From: a virus
Taxonomy: Duplodnaviria > Heunggongvirae > Uroviricota > Caudoviricetes
Length of the DNA stretch: 7,658 nt
Virus record (IMG/VR): IMGVR_UViG_2548876852_000010
Strand: one strand, 5' to 3'
The notes under the pieces are model-generated. The model ran no database searches. It was not told the origin of the DNA and saw only the letters and a list, made by a program, of their open reading frames with translations. The position numbers and the translations under genes were made by a program. Positions 1,603 through 6,599 of the stretch are shown one piece after another (within the stretch, counting starts at the first letter, position 1; the number at the start of each line of letters is the position of its first letter).

Positions 1603-2184
1603 TTATCTTCTTTTCAGTTCCTTGGGAAGAAAAGCATCTATTTCTTCTTCAGAAAATGTTAAATCTTCTTTGTTTTTTAATGCGTCCTGTGCTTTTTTAT
1701 AAGCTTCAAATGTTGTACTAGGAGAGCCTGAATACACTGAATGTAAACTCTCGAGTAACGAATCCCGCTCTGACTGCAATTGCTCGATTGGTTTTTCACC
1801 CATTGCTAAGTCTGTAAGCAATGATAAATACTTTTCTCGGATTAACCAGATCTCATTTGCAGCCTGCTTATGTTTTTGCGCCAACTCACCAAGGTCATAA
1901 TCTTTGGTATAAGCGTTAAGAATGAGAAGCAGTGTTGAAACAACAATCCCAACCCCCGTGCCTACTTCACCCGCGCCGAAAAAAGTTGCTAGAAAGCCTC
2001 CAGTAGTTAAGGCGGAGAGAATTATTTGCCAAAACTTTATAGAAGATAGTCGAGATAGGAGAATGTCTGAGCATTTTTCATGCGTCTTATGTGAGTAAAC
2101 GACCCGACCATAACACTCTCTGATCTGCCCTTCTAAAACCCTTCTAGATTCAGGTGTATCCTTAGTCTGGAAATGTTGATCCAT
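1603..2184 (-). CDS. SLATT-like 2-TM membrane effector (predicted partner of the upstream nucleotidyltransferase)
   Basis: The ORF spans 1603..2241. The preferred start is ATG 2184..2182, preceded by GGGAG (aaatggcGGGAGattt ATG), whereas the ATG at 2241 has no SD. Two adjacent hydrophobic helices (FWQIILSALTTGGFLATFF and GVGIVVSTLLLILNAY) are flanked by amphipathic helices with conserved-looking H/Y/W positions (VVYSHKTHEK ... AQKHKQAANEIWLIREKYL), which is SLATT-like architecture. It overlaps the upstream gene by 23 nt. Confidence 0.8.
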   Translation of the reverse strand: MDQHFQTKDTPESRRVLEGQIRECYGRVVYSHKTHEKCSDILLSRLSSIKFWQIILSALTTGGFLATFFGAGEVGTGVGIVVSTLLLILNAYTKDYDLGELAQKHKQAANEIWLIREKYLSLLTDLAMGEKPIEQLQSERDSLLESLHSVYSGSPSTTFEAYKKAQDALKNKEDLTFSEEEIDAFLPKELKRR

Positions 2185-3043
2185 AAATCTCCCGCCATTT
2201 TTGCTTAGCCGACCATTCGCGTTTTGGGGTCGCCATTTCATGCTCTATAGCTTCGAGTGAAATGTTATAGCACCGTTTTGCTTTATATTGGAAAAGCCCT
2301 TTACCATAGACATACTGACCACTTCCTGGCGCTTTCCAATACTCCTTACTCGTATCTTGATCAGCCATCCATTTGAAGAAATCACGACTCATGAAATCGT
2401 AGTAAAGATACGACTTATCTCTATGCGCCCAATTTTCAATGAATTGATACGCAAGCGTATCAATGAGTAAACCACTTATAGGTACATCCCATTTACGCTT
2501 CCAAGCTCTTGCCATTCTACAAAGTTGCACCAAATTGTTATTGGTAATGTTATTTCTTAACCTCATTGCAGAAATTTCTGGCTTTGGATTTGTAATCCTC
2601 CAACGGCCACCACCGTTCGCATCAGGAAATGTGTAACTATCACTAACATTGAGGAAAGCTGGAACGACTTCAAATGTAATTCCATCATTGAACGGTACAA
2701 GGATCACTTGACCGTCACCTCTAATACTAGTGGTAGCATAGGTTTTTTCAATAGATCTCTTAACCGCTTGAAGCAATGCTGACTGCCCATTTCCTAAGTA
2801 GCTATTGTATTTTTGATACTCGGAATATGGTAGCTGAAAAATCATATCCAGATCGCTCAAGCCTTGCGTAGCTGTGTTCCGACCATATGATCCAACGTAG
2901 AGACTATGAGAAGTATCAGAACTGCTATCCCAAAAATCCGTATTTAAACGCTTCGTTATATTCCTATATCTAGTTGAAATTGTTCCACCATCTTTTACAG
3001 TAAGATTGGAGCAAAATCCGCAAAACCACTCAGCTAAACCCAT
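2162..3043 (-). CDS. SMODS / CD-NTase-like nucleotidyltransferase (cGAS/DncV-like, Pol-beta fold)
   Basis: The track ORF 2162..3049 begins at TTG. The first ATG is 3043..3041, preceded by AAGGA. Motif GSYGRNTATQGLSDLD (nt 2846..2893) fits the G[SG]-x(9-13)-D-h-D nucleotidyltransferase signature, followed by a FEVVPAF strand carrying the likely third acidic residue. The N-terminus (AEWF..F...L.L...RY..I..RLN) is typical of SMODS domains. Stop TAA at 2162..2164. Confidence 0.8.
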   Translation of the reverse strand: MGLAEWFCGFCSNLTVKDGGTISTRYRNITKRLNTDFWDSSSDTSHSLYVGSYGRNTATQGLSDLDMIFQLPYSEYQKYNSYLGNGQSALLQAVKRSIEKTYATTSIRGDGQVILVPFNDGITFEVVPAFLNVSDSYTFPDANGGGRWRITNPKPEISAMRLRNNITNNNLVQLCRMARAWKRKWDVPISGLLIDTLAYQFIENWAHRDKSYLYYDFMSRDFFKWMADQDTSKEYWKAPGSGQYVYGKGLFQYKAKRCYNISLEAIEHEMATPKREWSAKQKWREIYGSTFPD

Positions 3044-3185
3044 GCTCAATTCCTTTTCTAAAATCTAATGAAAAATTCAAGGGCGCATGTTCCATGCATC
3101 ATTGATAACTTTTTTCAGTCAGCTAGAGCAACATAATTGATACTAACTAGCTGTTTCTTCAAGTGAGTAACCTACTTTAGCATCA

Positions 3186-3222
3186 AGGTATTATACCTAC
3201 CAAGCATGGGGAGAAACCACCA
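3186..3222 (-). promoter_or_regulatory. Candidate promoter of the SMODS-SLATT operon
   Basis: Perfect minus-strand -10 TATAAT (3195..3190), but only a weak -35 (GGTTTC, 17 bp upstream). This implies a leader of about 140 nt. The call is tentative. Confidence 0.25.
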
Positions 3223-3357
3223 CTTAAGCCATTGAAGTATATAGAGCAGATTTTGTTGAAAAAGCACTGTTTGTCTATACATATGAATATGTGCTTTTAA
3301 CCAGCAATAGCGCGGCTCTCAGCGTTTTACAAGCAGTGTCATGGGGTGTCGGGGATC

Positions 3358-3385
3358 GGAAGTTCAAATCCTCTCGTGCGACCCA
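3358..3385 (+). other. Orphan tRNA 3'-end fragment (T-arm + acceptor 3' strand + discriminator + CCA), possible att core or integration scar
   Basis: GGAAG-TTCAAAT-CCTCT (T-stem/loop with one mismatch), then CGTGCGA-C-CCA at 3375..3385. No complementary 5' acceptor strand (TCGCACG) or D-arm exists within 100 nt upstream. The T-arm resembles a tRNA-Pro-like GGAGG/CCTCT arm. Confidence 0.35.
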
Positions 3386-3397
3386 AAAGATTATATA

Positions 3398-3424
3398 AAC
3401 CAGCCTGTTATTGCTGGTTTTTTA
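3398..3424. terminator. Hairpin terminator, usable on either strand
   Basis: 7-bp stem AACCAGC (3398..3404) / GCTGGTT (3413..3419) with an 8-nt loop. On the plus strand it is followed by TTTTTT, on the minus strand by TATATAATCTTTT. It sits about 150 nt past the minus-strand replication-module ORF ending at 3577 and 13 nt past the tRNA-like CCA on the plus strand. Confidence 0.5.
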
Positions 3425-3576
3425 TGCCTACCTTCCTGGTAGGGAAGCTATGGGGAATTACTGGGGAATCCCCCCCTTTACCTGCTCCCATTAAACTAAC
3501 ATAGCACGATGTAAGCAACTTCCGCTTCTGGCACAAAGCGGACAACCACGCTAGCTCTACCCTGTGCCACAAAATG

Positions 3577-4035
3577 TCAATTTACATCTGAACTAATGCA
3601 CTTTAATCTCGTCACTTCAAAAAAATACCGAACATCCCCCTGATAAAACGACAATATCCGCTGCATAACTTCGCTTTTACGACACTCAGTACAAATTATA
3701 TTATGACGCCTGTCGTAACGACGTATTTCTCCATCAGGTAATGACCAGATAAGGTCCGGATCAACCGCAGATGGTTTCTTCAGCTTTGCCCTTGAGAGCT
3801 TTTTACGGGCATTTTGCCAGTCCTTACGCGCCTGTTCAGACGGGAATAACCCGTAACCAGAGTTGTATACATCGCCACTGGCAACCAGCTCTCTGGCCAG
3901 AACGCTCATCAGATATCTTGTTGCCCCAGTTTTAGCTTCCAGTTGTCGTAACGTCTCGCGCCCACTCTGGCGTACGAGTTCAAGAACCTGCCCTTTAATT
4001 TTTTCCCGCTCTTCTTGTGTAAAAACTTTTGCCAC
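3577..4035 (-). CDS. Hypothetical protein (152 aa), last gene of the early-right/replication operon
   Basis: GTG start at 4035 preceded by a strong SD (AGGAGG gctt GTG). The N-terminus looks like a helix-turn-helix or winged helix (TGATRYLMSVLARELVASGDVY), and the C-terminal part has a single CxxC (ICTECRK). Family not recognised. Confidence 0.55.
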   Translation of the reverse strand: MAKVFTQEEREKIKGQVLELVRQSGRETLRQLEAKTGATRYLMSVLARELVASGDVYNSGYGLFPSEQARKDWQNARKKLSRAKLKKPSAVDPDLIWSLPDGEIRRYDRRHNIICTECRKSEVMQRILSFYQGDVRYFFEVTRLKCISSDVN

Positions 4036-4075
4036 AAGCCCTCCTGAAAATTACCTCATGACCAGAAATACACAC

Positions 4076-5146
4076 TTACCCCCTGAAGCCCGGTGGAATT
4101 TCGGTATCCGGTTCAGAAATATGATTCACACAACGCTGGTTGTTCGTACCGCTTACCGGGAGCAACCAGGGGTTTTCAAAATTCCGGTCCGGTCCAAAAA
4201 ACGTCGTCGCTCGCTGAACAAATTCCGTTCCCGTTTTCCCGGTAGCCGCCAGGTATCTTGCGTAACGCCTCACACCATCCAGCATGGCCTCTGGTGGCAC
4301 CCCCTCGCGTAATCTGGCCTTCCAGGCACTGAAAGCGGATTTCTTCGGGTTTGCCCCAGCACGCAACGGGTATTCCCGCCAGACCTGTTCGAACACATCC
4401 GGATAATCTACTCGCCCCACAGGCTGCCCGGTGTTTTCCGGGACTACCCGATCGGCTTCCCGCTGAATGGCGGAATCGGCTTCAGGCTGCTGCAGTTGGT
4501 GTGATTGCTCCGGCCTTGCGGTCATCACCTGCTGCACAGCGCCCGAATCGGCTTTCAGCGCATACGCTGAATCGGCTTCCGGTGTCGTGCCTGCTGGCTG
4601 ACCAGGATTGACGGTCTGAACATCCCCTGCCTGGTTCGTGGCGTTTTTTACGCCATGGACCATAGTGTTTTGATCTTCTTGATCTGTATCTTTATCTGTA
4701 TCTTTATCTGTCGTGACTCGTCGTGACATGTGCGTGACATTTCGTGACGCGCCGTGACAATCGCCATTTTGTTCCCGCTTTCTTTCCCTCTCTCGCTGCG
4801 CCCTCTTGCGCTCTGCAGGAGATTTTGCGGTTTGCGAAATATTGCCGTTGTCCTCTTTAAGCACCTGGCGTTTTTCCCATCCAGTGATTAAATCACCATC
4901 AAGTACCCGCCCCTGCATCGTCTGCAAAATTGAATCAATTACCTCTTCTGTCACGTCGAGCGCACTTGCCAAATCTTCTGTCGTGACATCAATGTGACCT
5001 CGCGTGACATTTCGTGACGCGCTCACCAGGAGGTGGATATACACTGCCATCACTGTTGCAATTGGCTGCCCTGACACCCTGGCAATTGTTCGCCACTTAG
5101 GGTCATTTGGCATGTCATGCCATAATCTGAGCCAAGCGTTAGCCAT
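4076..5146 (-). CDS. Prophage replication initiation protein (replisome-organiser-like) with internal iterons
   Basis: The track ORF begins at GTG 5152, but the first ATG at 5146 is preceded by GAGGTG. N-terminus MANAWLRLWHDMPNDPKWRTIARV...YIHLL and a conserved-looking C-terminal block (YPLRAGANPKKSAFSAWKARL...GVRRYARYLAATGKTGTEFVQRATTFFGPD) are typical of lambdoid or cryptic-prophage replication initiators. It sits downstream of the cro/cII analogues, as lambda O does, and contains a low-complexity acidic linker (TDKDTDKDTDQEDQ). Confidence 0.7.
   Translation of the reverse strand: MANAWLRLWHDMPNDPKWRTIARVSGQPIATVMAVYIHLLVSASRNVTRGHIDVTTEDLASALDVTEEVIDSILQTMQGRVLDGDLITGWEKRQVLKEDNGNISQTAKSPAERKRAQRERERKREQNGDCHGASRNVTHMSRRVTTDKDTDKDTDQEDQNTMVHGVKNATNQAGDVQTVNPGQPAGTTPEADSAYALKADSGAVQQVMTARPEQSHQLQQPEADSAIQREADRVVPENTGQPVGRVDYPDVFEQVWREYPLRAGANPKKSAFSAWKARLREGVPPEAMLDGVRRYARYLAATGKTGTEFVQRATTFFGPDRNFENPWLLPVSGTNNQRCVNHISEPDTEIPPGFRG
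4687..4710. repeat. Tandem direct repeat, 12-bp unit TATCTTTATCTG x2 (hexamer TATCT[TG] x4)
   Basis: Exact tandem duplication read directly from the sequence. It encodes the TDKDTDKD linker and abuts iteron cluster 1. Confidence 0.85.
4712..4758. repeat. Iteron cluster 1: five CGTGAC repeats phased at 10-11 bp
   Basis: CGTGAC at 4712, 4722, 4733, 4743 and 4753, about one helical turn apart, inside the replication-initiator CDS. Confidence 0.8.
4982..5018. repeat. Iteron cluster 2: four (C/T)GTGAC repeats phased at 10-11 bp
   Basis: CGTGAC at 4982, 5003 and 5013 and TGTGAC at 4993. The 21-bp string GCGTGACATTTCGTGACGCGC is shared exactly with cluster 1. Confidence 0.8.
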
Positions 5147-5217
5147 ACTCACCTCTTCTGATACCGAATCTTTTTACTCACGAGTTGCCGGAAGCGATTC
5201 GATATGGCTATTGTCAG

Positions 5218-5643
5218 TCAATGTACTGCCACAGCATTTCCTGCCGGGCCACCACGGTTCATCTGATTGAAACCGGCGATTGCCACTGCGACAAAATCAT
5301 CAGCGTCTCTCACCAGTCGCTCCCGCGTCTCCACCAGCTCCCGAAAATAAGCTGAACTGTGGCTGCGCATTCTGGCCACCAGCAAAGGTGGCATTGCCTT
5401 TTCGATCGCTGGTAACAACGCCTGAATTTTTTCAACTGCATCAGGGGTATCTTTCTCTATCCAGCGGAAAATTTTCTGGGTATTGCGAGCCAGGGCTTCC
5501 GGATGGCTGTCGTCGTACAGTTCAGGAAACGTCATACCCAACTCAAAATAAGCCTGGGTTATTCCAGCTGCCGGAACTTTTTCGCCATCAGGACGCGCCC
5601 AGGCATTCATCGCCATGCGGATGTGTTCATGCTTGATTTTCAT
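5218..5643 (-). CDS. YdaT-family protein (CII-like regulator of cryptic and lambdoid prophages)
   Basis: The best start is the internal ATG at 5643, preceded by AAGGGGGG. The product begins MKIKHEHI... and ends ...VAVH, at about 141 aa, matching the length, termini and position (after the cro analogue, before the replication gene) of the Rac YdaT family as I recall it. The upstream extension of the track ORF has no SD. Confidence 0.65.
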   Translation of the reverse strand: MKIKHEHIRMAMNAWARPDGEKVPAAGITQAYFELGMTFPELYDDSHPEALARNTQKIFRWIEKDTPDAVEKIQALLPAIEKAMPPLLVARMRSHSSAYFRELVETRERLVRDADDFVAVAIAGFNQMNRGGPAGNAVAVH

Positions 5644-5869
5644 GAATCCCCCCTTGGTTAGAAGGCGGATTATGATCAGAACCGGGAATGACAACCGTCG
5701 GTATGTGTAACTCATATTTGAGCGCCCCGGCAGTGACTGCCTGAATTAGCAACGCCCATTTCCACGGAACCTCTTCCCCCCACATGCTGACTGTGGTTTT
5801 TGACGTTCCTAGAGCTGCGGCTGTTTTAACAACTCCGCCAAAATAGCCTAATACTTCTGATTTTTTCAT
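5627..5869 (-). CDS. Cro/YdaS-like small HTH regulator
   Basis: The best start is ATG at 5869, preceded by GGAG 7 nt upstream. HTH signature YFGGVVKTAAALGTSKTTVSMW. It is divergent from the CI-like gene and overlaps the YdaT-like start by 17 nt. Confidence 0.65.
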   Translation of the reverse strand: MKKSEVLGYFGGVVKTAAALGTSKTTVSMWGEEVPWKWALLIQAVTAGALKYELHIPTVVIPGSDHNPPSNQGGIHENQA

Positions 5870-5897
5870 GAGTCGCTCCATAAAACTGAACGCCAAA

Positions 5898-5927
5898 AGT
5901 TTAATAATCAAAACCAAAGAAAGTCAA
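5898..5927 (-). promoter_or_regulatory. Candidate PR-like promoter for the cro/YdaS - YdaT - rep operon
   Basis: On the minus strand: -35 TTGACT (5927..5922), 18-bp spacer, -10 TAAACT (5903..5898). The -10 hexamer is identical to that of the PL-like promoter at 6707..6712. Confidence 0.35.
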
Positions 5928-5942
5928 GAAACAAAACCATCT

Positions 5943-5962
5943 GTGTTTTAAAATCAAAACAT
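5943..5962. promoter_or_regulatory. Operator-like 20-bp palindrome GTGTTTT-aaaatc-AAAACAT overlapping the CI start codon
   Basis: 7-bp inverted arms with a 6-bp spacer. The architecture is the same as the palindrome at 6665..6684, with arms differing at one position. It overlaps a -10-like TAAAAT (5949..5954) placed 6 nt before the SD-less CI ATG. Confidence 0.45.
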
Positions 5963-6599
5963 GAGCAAGCAAACAATATCTGAACGCATAACCCAACGTA
6001 TGCATGCGCTAAACCTGAAAGGCAAAGACCTTGTCAATGCCACTGGCGCATCAAAAGGCTCCGTAAGTCAATGGATGAACGGTGGAGGAGCGCCGTCCTC
6101 GCGTTACATAAGTTCACTGGCAAAAATATTGAAAGTAAACGAAAATTGGCTTCTTAATGGAGGAGAGTTAAATACAGGTGATTCGCTTGATCTATCTTTA
6201 CCGCCGATAAAAACGGTTCCGCTACTATCACTTCAGCAGGCAGCAAGCTGGAGTGATTATATGAAAAATTCCTCAATAACCTCTTGTGTGCAGCTTGTCG
6301 GAGAAATCCCGGCCAATACCTTTGCAGTTGTTCTAGAGAGTGACAGTATGTCAACATCTGGTGGGGGAGTTTCCATCCCAAATGGTTCAACAGTTTTTGT
6401 TGATCCCAATCGAACCGTACAACCAGGAAATATTGTCCTTGCCTTACCCAAAGGGACCACAACACCTGTCATTCGTAAACTGGAGATAGAAGGGCCGGAT
6501 ATTCTTTTAGTCCCCACGAATCCTCGCTACCCTTCAATTATGCTGGATGATCTATCTTGCATATTGGGCGTATGCTTTAAAATTCAACAAGATATTTAA
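5961..6599 (+). CDS. CI-like phage repressor (N-terminal HTH + C-terminal S24 LexA-like autopeptidase domain)
   Basis: ATG at 5961. The HTH region is LKGKDLVNATGASKGSVSQWMNG. The C-terminal domain has the S24 Ser/Lys dyad context (ESDSMS ... VIRKL) and collinear similarity to the lambda CI C-terminus (VFVDPNRTVQPGNIVLALP ... LLVPTNPRYPSIMLDD versus LVDPEQAVEPGDFCIARL ... FLQPLNPQYPMIPCNE). No SD, so possibly leaderless like lambda cI from PRM. Confidence 0.88.
   Translation: MSKQTISERITQRMHALNLKGKDLVNATGASKGSVSQWMNGGGAPSSRYISSLAKILKVNENWLLNGGELNTGDSLDLSLPPIKTVPLLSLQQAASWSDYMKNSSITSCVQLVGEIPANTFAVVLESDSMSTSGGGVSIPNGSTVFVDPNRTVQPGNIVLALPKGTTTPVIRKLEIEGPDILLVPTNPRYPSIMLDDLSCILGVCFKIQQDI

Follow-up and report, generated by a model that had tools for sequence, protein, structure and literature searches.

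Phased GTCACG repeats within an initiator gene mark the probable replication origin of a lambdoid prophage

The DNA analyzed here, called the window throughout, is a stretch of 7,658 nucleotides from a Caudoviricetes virus (IMG/VR record IMGVR_UViG_2548876852_000010). It is 100% identical to part of the chromosome of Shiga-toxin-producing E. coli 2013C-4991, where it falls inside a lambdoid prophage. The minus strand carries a replication initiator gene, whose open reading frame (ORF) aligns from end to end with PHROG 3729, annotated as 'replication initiation protein' (E=5.5e-258). All PHROG families matched by this initiator are initiator families other than that of lambda O, and the protein is without any above-threshold Pfam match (E≤0.01, whole protein). 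RefSeq starts the protein at an ATG at 5146, giving 356 amino acids, versus the 358 of the GTG-start ORF. The gene is 98–99% identical in seven sequenced phages, among them Tritos (99%), a plaque-forming phage (PMC9928086). No second replication protein is encoded in the complete 46-kb Tritos genome, which has no helicase and no loader, and no loader or helicase gene was found in the prophage region. The initiator is the sole replication gene of this prophage type. Within it lie two arrays of short direct repeats, a single inverted copy and an A+T-rich tract, arranged as follows.

4076–5152, minus strand: replication initiator gene, 358 amino acids from a GTG start (ORF list, PHROG match)
4982–5018, plus strand: domain-region array, four direct YGTGAC copies (coding strand GTCACR) spaced 11, 10 and 10 bp
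4950–4955, minus strand: single inverted copy (GTCACG on the plus strand), overlapping codons D66-V67-T68 at the turn of the helix-turn-helix (HTH)
4712–4758, plus strand: linker array, five direct CGTGAC copies starting at 4712, 4722, 4733, 4743 and 4753, spaced 10, 11, 10 and 10 bp
4663–4711: A+T-rich tract, proposed DNA-unwinding element, purine-rich on the coding strand, (A)CAGATAAAGATACAGATAAAGATACAGATCAAGAAGATCAAAACA, including a 12-bp tandem repeat at 4677–4711
4632–4662: tentative imperfect palindrome TGGTTCGTGGCGT-TTTTT-ACGCCATGGACCA, with 13-nt arms and a 5-nt A/T loop, adjoining the A+T-rich tract
4865–5140, minus strand: region encoding the predicted N-terminal winged-helix domain, residues 5–96 (AlphaFold2; predicted local distance difference test, pLDDT, 88–98 over residues 11–90)
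4766–4819, minus strand: region encoding a predicted basic, Lys/Arg-rich helix, residues 112–129 (AlphaFold2, pLDDT about 70)
4079–4141, minus strand: region encoding the C-terminal tail QRCVNHISEPDTEIPPGFRG, a proposed loader-recruiting motif (phmmer, NCBIfam)

A preliminary description of the window had reported nine (C/T)GTGAC copies in two phased arrays, a 21-bp string common to both and a tandem repeat beside the linker array, and all of these were recovered. The nine copies occupy 4712–4758 and 4982–5018, with those of the domain-region array starting at 4982, 4993 (TGTGAC), 5003 and 5013. The 21-mer GCGTGACATTTCGTGACGCGC occurs exactly twice, at 4732–4752 and 5002–5022, and Tandem Repeats Finder placed TCTTTATCTGTA 2.9 times at 4677–4711, where a period of 6 is also a possible reading. 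The arrays, the inverted copy and the tandem repeat all lie within the initiator ORF. The window contains 11 YGTGAC hexamers compared to 4.8 ± 2.2 expected; beyond the nine array copies and the inverted copy, it holds one, at 1252. Runs of at least three phased hexamers arose in 4 of 1000 dinucleotide-preserving shuffles of the window, none of them longer than three. Five exact CGTGAC copies at 10/11-bp spacing are well beyond chance. In the complete Tritos genome, the single run of at least four phased copies is the array in the initiator gene, and 50 shuffles of that genome gave zero runs of three or more.

Phage genomes were searched by tblastn, and a wider scan at one genome per species gave 38 loci (individual loci carry L numbers below). 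The initiator proved modular, with the domain boundary as the point of module exchange. Similarity to the Pseudomonas phages phita81A and P7869 is limited to residues 3–140, at 69.5% identity, while that to several Shiga toxin (Stx)/Shigella phages and PhiR5_2 is limited to the C-terminal half. The phita81A gene has an unrelated C-terminal part and is followed by a gene for a Toprim/DnaB-type primase-helicase. It holds 4+4 GTCACG copies at the same codons and offsets, in arrays about 259 nt apart, and the inverted copy is kept; after the second array comes GATAAAGATACAGA (the tract in full is TAGATAAAGATACAGAAGAAGAGAAAGAG). PhiR5_2 (L004) has the same C-terminal domain joined to an unrelated N-terminal domain, and GTCACG is absent, with another motif at the corresponding places in a parallel layout. 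Its linker (2940–3010) contains AGCCCCTT twice, 11 bp apart, then a (CAAGAACAGGAA)n purine tract and then a palindrome, and its N-terminal coding part (2683–2714) contains AAGGGGCT twice, also 11 bp apart and in inverse orientation to AGCCCCTT.

The 38 loci span Enterobacterales, Pseudomonas, Bordetella, Acidovorax, Aquitalea, Chromobacterium, Gilvimarinus and others, across gamma- and beta-proteobacteria. GTCACG arrays occur in about 27 of them at the same two offsets (+116 to +150, and a second at about +375 to +440) from the conserved WLRLWH anchor. The four domain-array positions are kept in at least 22 homologous genes, the inverted copy lies at the same offset in most homologs, and the linker array is present in nearly all. 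Downstream genes differ among the relatives, being primase-helicase, DnaB-like, DnaC-like or ParB-like, and DUF977 is absent there. Together, these comparisons indicate that the repeats are inherited along with the N-terminal domain and independently of the C-terminal domain, the neighboring genes and the host.

Repeats of this kind could be a by-product of protein evolution or recombination without any role in DNA binding, whether as a duplicated peptide (SRNVT...VTT), as a low-complexity linker or as a hotspot for the exchange of modules or endonucleases. Indeed, the peptide ASRNVT..VTT occurs twice in the initiator, HNH or GIY-YIG-like insertions are found at the linker in some relatives, and the domain boundary is where modules are exchanged. 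However, the 10/11-nt spacing is not a multiple of 3, and the copies lie in all three reading frames: those of the window translate as ASR, VTR, GHI, VTT, CHG, ASR, VTH, MSR and VTT, and GTCAC copies across relatives are distributed 81/53/57 among the frames. Codon usage was compared in 22 GTCACG-class genes with a mean nucleotide identity of 68%. Repeat-overlapping codons are nearly fixed, with Ala45 as GCG in 20/22, Ser46 as TCA in 21/22, Val49 as GTC and Thr50 as ACG each in 22/22, Gly52 as GGT and His53 as CAC each in 21/21, Val56 as GTC in 21/21 and Thr57 as ACG in 20/21. At the inverted copy, Val67 is GTG in all 18 genes having Val there. The fraction of gene pairs sharing a codon is 0.82–1.0 at four- and six-fold degenerate codons overlapping the repeats versus 0.15–0.44 at other conserved degenerate codons (Mann–Whitney p=1.5e-5), and equally conserved residues away from the repeats use 3–6 codons. 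Synonymous positions are thus frozen at the repeats alone.

The repeat sequence also changes as a unit. A motif-blind scan for phased hexamers ranked GTCACG top in 27 genes and GTAACG top in four (L026, L028, L036 and L038), and a CGAACG(C) class takes in three or four genes (L033, L035, L037 and, roughly, L041). Each gene has one motif class, which fills both arrays. Between the close relatives L030 and L026/L028, the switch from GTC ACG to GTA ACG leaves the amino acids of the Val-Thr copies unchanged, and nonetheless it extends throughout both arrays. Where its frame would introduce a TAA stop, GTAAC does not occur at all (0/30), and the domain arrays of GTAACG genes are spaced at 21 bp, a distance that covers two helical turns and preserves the reading frame. 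These patterns argue that selection acts on the repeat DNA itself. As an explanation, a protein repeat is ruled out by the frame and synonymous-site evidence, and with a motif switch that is concerted across both arrays and an adjoining tract kept in two frames, an origin of the repeats as any such by-product is extremely improbable.

In the tract next to the linker array, the GC content of 0.38 is the minimum of the gene, compared to 0.50–0.64 elsewhere, and the tract includes two GATC sites (4672 and 4681), a sequence not enriched overall. In most relatives, YAGATAAAGA(T/A)A(A/C)AGA... begins 0–1 nt after the last linker repeat, and the purine tract CAGATAAAGA persists downstream of the linker array in genes of 69% GC. 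Even in genes of 60–69% GC, the tract has 20–27 A+T per 30 nt, and purines make up 73–90% of its coding strand. Most genes read it as x-D-K-D, but L026, L028, L030 and L036 read it as Q-I-R-(E/K); its DNA is therefore kept across two frames. The adjoining palindrome is also terminator-like in a scan of the plus strand, antisense to the gene. Its counterpart in PhiR5_2 shows a compensatory change in the innermost pair, from GGCGT..ACGCC to GGCGA..TCGCC. Among distant BLAST matches to 4400–4700, one other sequence type reaches the palindrome, and this single change is not generalizable because just two sequence types are available.

An AlphaFold2 model of the initiator was built on 31 homologs. 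The predicted N-terminal domain consists of helices at residues 6–16, 18–27 and 31–47, a loop at 48–57, the HTH helices at 58–65 and 69–79, and a β-hairpin wing at 80–91. The helix at 112–129, whose residues R115 and R120 hardly vary among the aligned homologs, stands between this folded domain and the linker array. From about residue 130 onward, the model predicts a disordered acidic segment. The preliminary description had taken the repeats to double as code for a flexible acidic linker. For one array this agrees with the model: 4712–4758 encodes the disordered segment CHGASRNVTHMSRRVTT (pLDDT below 50), the tandem repeat likewise falls in the disordered acidic linker, and the linker array and A+T-rich tract together make up codons 132–163 of 358. 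The array at 4982–5018 does not fit that description, since it encodes residues 45–58 (ASRNVTRGHIDVTT) of the folded winged-helix domain, comprising the end of helix 3 and the pre-HTH loop, with pLDDT 88–92. The sites lie in coding DNA, and the repeats would therefore determine which residues make up the linker and a tolerant surface loop. Overall, the initiator is predicted to begin with a winged-helix domain, to continue through a disordered acidic linker and to finish in a helical C-terminal domain with a DnaT-like tail at its end. In Pfam at E≤10, PF09681 (Phage_rep_org_N) and HTH_Crp_2 alone were matched. PF09681 aligned to the N-terminal domain over 119 of 121 profile positions, at E=0.0086 and 16.5 bits compared to a gathering threshold of 23.3, and was matched at E=3e-4 in one of 31 relatives.

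The preliminary description had proposed comparing related prophages for covariation of the repeat sequence with the DNA-binding domain of the initiator. In the relatives, the only columns that differ with motif class are 47–57, a segment that is itself encoded by the array; none in the HTH helices or the wing does. Such a result would fit recognition of the repeats by another protein, such as a host factor or the cII-like/YdaT or DUF977/Ren-like product. Nevertheless, wherever the flanking genes differ, as in Pseudomonas, Bordetella, Aquitalea and other hosts, the arrays still accompany the N-terminal domain, and a host factor common to these taxa would not explain three motif classes, which leaves a reader other than the initiator very unlikely. 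It is also conceivable that the loop at 47–57 determines repeat specificity while being encoded by its own target, in which case site and reader would change in one mutational step. We consider this unlikely. The pre-HTH loop tolerates repeat-built insertions of 7 to more than 20 residues (L007, L026, L028, L030, L031 and L038), and an ACG(C) core common to all motif classes could be recognized by a constant reading surface. The favored alternative, to which the repeat-built insertions lend weight, is that the domain reads the common ACG(C) core and the loop may serve as a tolerant landing pad.

Several relatives carry insertions at these sites. In L007 (Escherichia albertii), a 21-bp in-frame insertion at codons of about 51–57 consists of two repeat units (10+11 nt); it adds seven residues (TCHGVSL) to the pre-HTH loop and brings the domain array to six copies. 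In L040 and L042, an insertion of ~110 residues at the usual site of the linker array (about +300 to +700) has GIY-YIG-like sequence (YVYYVATTDGDVVRVGISRNPWAR) and ACTACG/CTACGTAG repeats. Short database proteins (P0043, P0061, P0075 and P0106) have an HNH endonuclease domain (PF01844) after the N-terminal domain. These insertions suggest that mobile nucleases target the origin or linker site.

At the other end of the protein, the last 21 residues align to E. coli DnaT 159–179 (phmmer against the PDB, E=0.003–0.01). The initiator is not a full-length DnaT: the NCBIfam DnaT equivalog (NF002770) scored 18.2 bits compared to a cutoff of 201, and just the last 21–24 residues aligned. The DnaT-like tail also ends unrelated C-terminal domains in L017 and L028, and it tends to accompany loaders of the DnaC type or the lack of any loader. 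Among tail-bearing initiators, a DnaC/IstB-like gene comes next in L004, L028 and L038, and there is no loader in the window, L006 or L017. Among tail-less initiators, the next gene encodes a primase-helicase in L003, L018 and L019, and a DnaB-like helicase in L036. Residues 154–179 of DnaT help it to bind single-stranded DNA cooperatively (PMC4132743), and the protein is believed to recruit DnaB/DnaC (PMC13377028). The tail of the window initiator probably engages a DnaC-type loader, here that of the host.

From these elements we infer that the region is probably the replication origin of the lambdoid prophage, situated inside its own initiator gene, with the linker array and the A+T-rich tract as the core. 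Winged-helix monomers would bind the GTCACG cores, which would lie on one face of the helix because they are spaced 10–11 bp apart, and a cooperative protein array could then form on the five linker copies at 4712–4758. The resulting nucleoprotein complex would strain and open the adjoining tract at 4663–4711, with its purine/pyrimidine asymmetry. RNA polymerase starting at the early rightward promoter, in the region upstream of cro, would traverse the gene and may assist this opening, much as happens at lambda ori. The C-terminal domain and DnaT-like tail would bring in host DnaC–DnaB, proposed here because the phage type encodes no loader or helicase, and theta replication would start. The array at 4982–5018 and the inverted copy, about 260 bp off, would be auxiliary sites of the same kind, which may raise the local initiator concentration, loop to the core, or serve copy control or autoregulation. 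An auxiliary role is probable because L032, L034 and L039 lack the domain-region array, which is thus probably not essential.

The preliminary description had already placed an origin in the initiator gene, and every computational test run was consistent with this placement: co-inheritance, frozen codons, reading frames, concerted motifs and the conserved A+T tract. The repeats might instead bind the initiator for autoregulation or copy control, by an operator-like roadblock or by handcuffing, and not for initiation, with the true origin elsewhere. Plasmid iterons serve both initiation and control. The domain-region array is without an adjoining A+T tract and is dispensable in some relatives, and a weak sigma-70-like match (4734–4761, plus strand) overlaps the linker array. 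However, the A+T tract abuts the linker array in nearly every relative, high-GC genomes included, and the complete Tritos genome has no other phased repeat cluster. Moreover, characterized analogues all place ori at such repeats (PMC7466680, PMC6316719, PMC8965321). We regard a role confined to control as unlikely.

Several results weigh against an origin at this site or against parts of the proposed mechanism. The loci L032, L034 and L039 have two or fewer weak repeats and no domain-region array, and they keep the purine tract. Scans of the window for DnaA-box and IHF consensus sites gave matches at or below chance and none beside the arrays. The E. coli tract is just about 62–73% A+T, and since it also codes for a low-complexity acidic/lysine linker, this alone could favor GAT/AAA codons. 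The concerted evolution of the two arrays may partly reflect gene conversion between them. With a repeat core of just 6 bp, specificity would depend on cooperative binding across an array. Neither the HTH helices nor the wing contain a residue that tracks the motif class, so that the reading of GTCACG versus GTAACG versus CGAACGC could be assigned to none of their residues. Foldseek searches of the PDB with the N-terminal model returned MarR-, CRP- and ArsR-type winged helices, all at E>0.1, and assigned no family, and the C-terminal domain model gave no significant match and no DnaT fold. Literature searches turned up no paper on this initiator family.

The initiator gene is set among the following window genes.

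5961–6599, plus strand: cI-like repressor gene with HTH plus S24
5627–5917, minus strand: P22-Cro-like gene
5218–5715, minus strand: cII-like/YdaT gene
3577–4035, minus strand: DUF977/Ren-like gene
1603–3049, minus strand: SMODS nucleotidyltransferase with SLATT effector
Also among the window genes: integrase fragment

A promoter consensus match lies upstream of cro (5898–5927). The repressor ORF is complete at 212 amino acids, with HTH_3 at residues 17–64 and Peptidase_S24 at residues 113–197. RefSeq annotates just the last 112 codons (6261–6599), as a 'LexA family protein', and the gene appears under-called. Downstream of the initiator stop codon by 40–60 bp, where the DUF977 gene starts, a DnaA box that fits the consensus perfectly, TTTTACACA (minus strand, 4016–4024), faces a one-mismatch box (plus strand, 4028–4036); the window-wide count of such boxes is not above chance. 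The ~520 bp between the SMODS and DUF977 genes (3050–3576) contain no ORF longer than 54 amino acids, no Rfam match and no transfer RNA (tRNA). The SMODS nucleotidyltransferase (PF18144, E=2e-50) and the SLATT_4 membrane effector (PF18186, E=6e-74) form a two-gene cassette on the minus strand, between the replication module and the integrase fragment, which looks like a moron for defense similar to a cyclic-oligonucleotide-based antiphage signaling system (CBASS). The cargo differs in other prophages with the same replication module, an FRG-domain gene being one example. Rfam identified a sok antitoxin RNA at 37–211 on the minus strand (110 bits, E=5e-25), part of a hokD/sok locus that RefSeq annotates just upstream. 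An RNA explanation of the repeats was rejected, as this sok match was the only one Rfam gave and ARAGORN found no tRNA in the window.

In lambda-type origins, the middle of gene O carries iterons together with an A+T-rich tract (PMC7466680), and the preliminary description had likened the repeats to lambda ori. In a comparison that takes in Stx-phage, 933W and P27 variants, the layout is shared. As in lambda (PMC7466680), the proposed origin sits where a putative origin-binding N-terminal domain meets an exchangeable C-terminal domain that would recruit the helicase machinery, and it has repeated sites with an A+T tract on one side, repeats translated into a linker and a site number that differs from relative to relative. 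The gene order cI / cro / cII-like / initiator is likewise that of lambda. Descent from lambda O is a different matter, as the window initiator has no match to Pfam Phage_rep_O and its repeats are direct, not inverted. In lambda, a dimer binds each of four to six imperfect inverted repeats of about 19 bp, whereas the window has direct 6-bp cores with a 10–11-bp period and a second array within the code for the DNA-binding domain. It also differs in lacking a downstream P-type loader gene, with a DUF977/Ren-like gene instead, and in having a DnaT-like tail.

Other systems offer comparable likenesses. The lactococcal P335-group replisome organizers (Tuc2009 Rep2009, TP901-1 ORF13 and r1t ORF11) have their ori in direct repeats that lie within the organizer genes and are bound by the gene products, as described for Rep2009 and TP901-1 ORF13 (PMC8965321), and the window would share this feature. 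These organizers also have a low-complexity stretch after the N-terminal domain, and RefSeq calls close relatives of the window protein 'phage replisome organizer'. The end-to-end alignment to PF09681 is a further, weak likeness, although its score is below threshold, and the P335 organizers differ in their Gram-positive hosts and in the sequences and lengths of their repeats. Homology to TP901-1 ORF13 was rejected, with an hhalign probability of 0.5%; ORF13 is HTH_36 plus DnaD-like, not PF09681. SPP1 gp38 binds direct repeats beside an A+T-rich unwinding element within gene 38 (PMC6316719). Of its two direct-repeat sets, one (oriL) is in its own gene beside that element (PMC6316719), but the other (oriR), at a distance of about 13 kb, forms a further origin, whereas the window arrays are about 260 bp apart in one gene. 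SPP1 also encodes a loader and helicase (gp39 and gp40), and no sequence similarity to the window initiator was found. A remote second origin of the SPP1 kind was rejected, as the Tritos genome is without any other phased array.

Iteron plasmids (RepA, RepE and π) resemble the window in their winged-helix initiator, phased direct repeats, adjacent A+T region and possible second control set, as generally known and as summarized in PMC2647930. Their iterons are about 17–22 bp, usually intergenic and usually accompanied by DnaA boxes, as is also general knowledge, whereas the window has a 6-bp core with a 10–11-bp period, sites within coding sequence and no adjacent DnaA box. The likeness to lambda ori/O, SPP1 gp38/oriL and the lactococcal organizers is best described as one of analogous design, with membership in none of these groups established. 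The layout itself is known and expected for a lambdoid phage; what is new is an initiator family with a previously unmapped origin.

A recent survey describes lambdoid phages with a single O-like gene as their replication module, and no loader or helicase, as common (34 of the 314 surveyed), and says that their replication 'is not yet understood' (PMC12315714). The window belongs to this single-O-like-gene type, and the probable location of its origin gives handles on such modules: the repeat cores, the putative unwinding tract, a separable domain and the DnaT-like tail. The initiator family is also an unusually clear natural case of coding and protein-binding constraints acting on the same bases, visible as frozen synonymous codons, frame-dependent stop avoidance and the shift to 21-bp spacing. 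The module is found in prophages of Shiga-toxin-producing, adherent-invasive and Shigella strains, and its origin may find use in origin-decoy interference or in phage-derived replicons.

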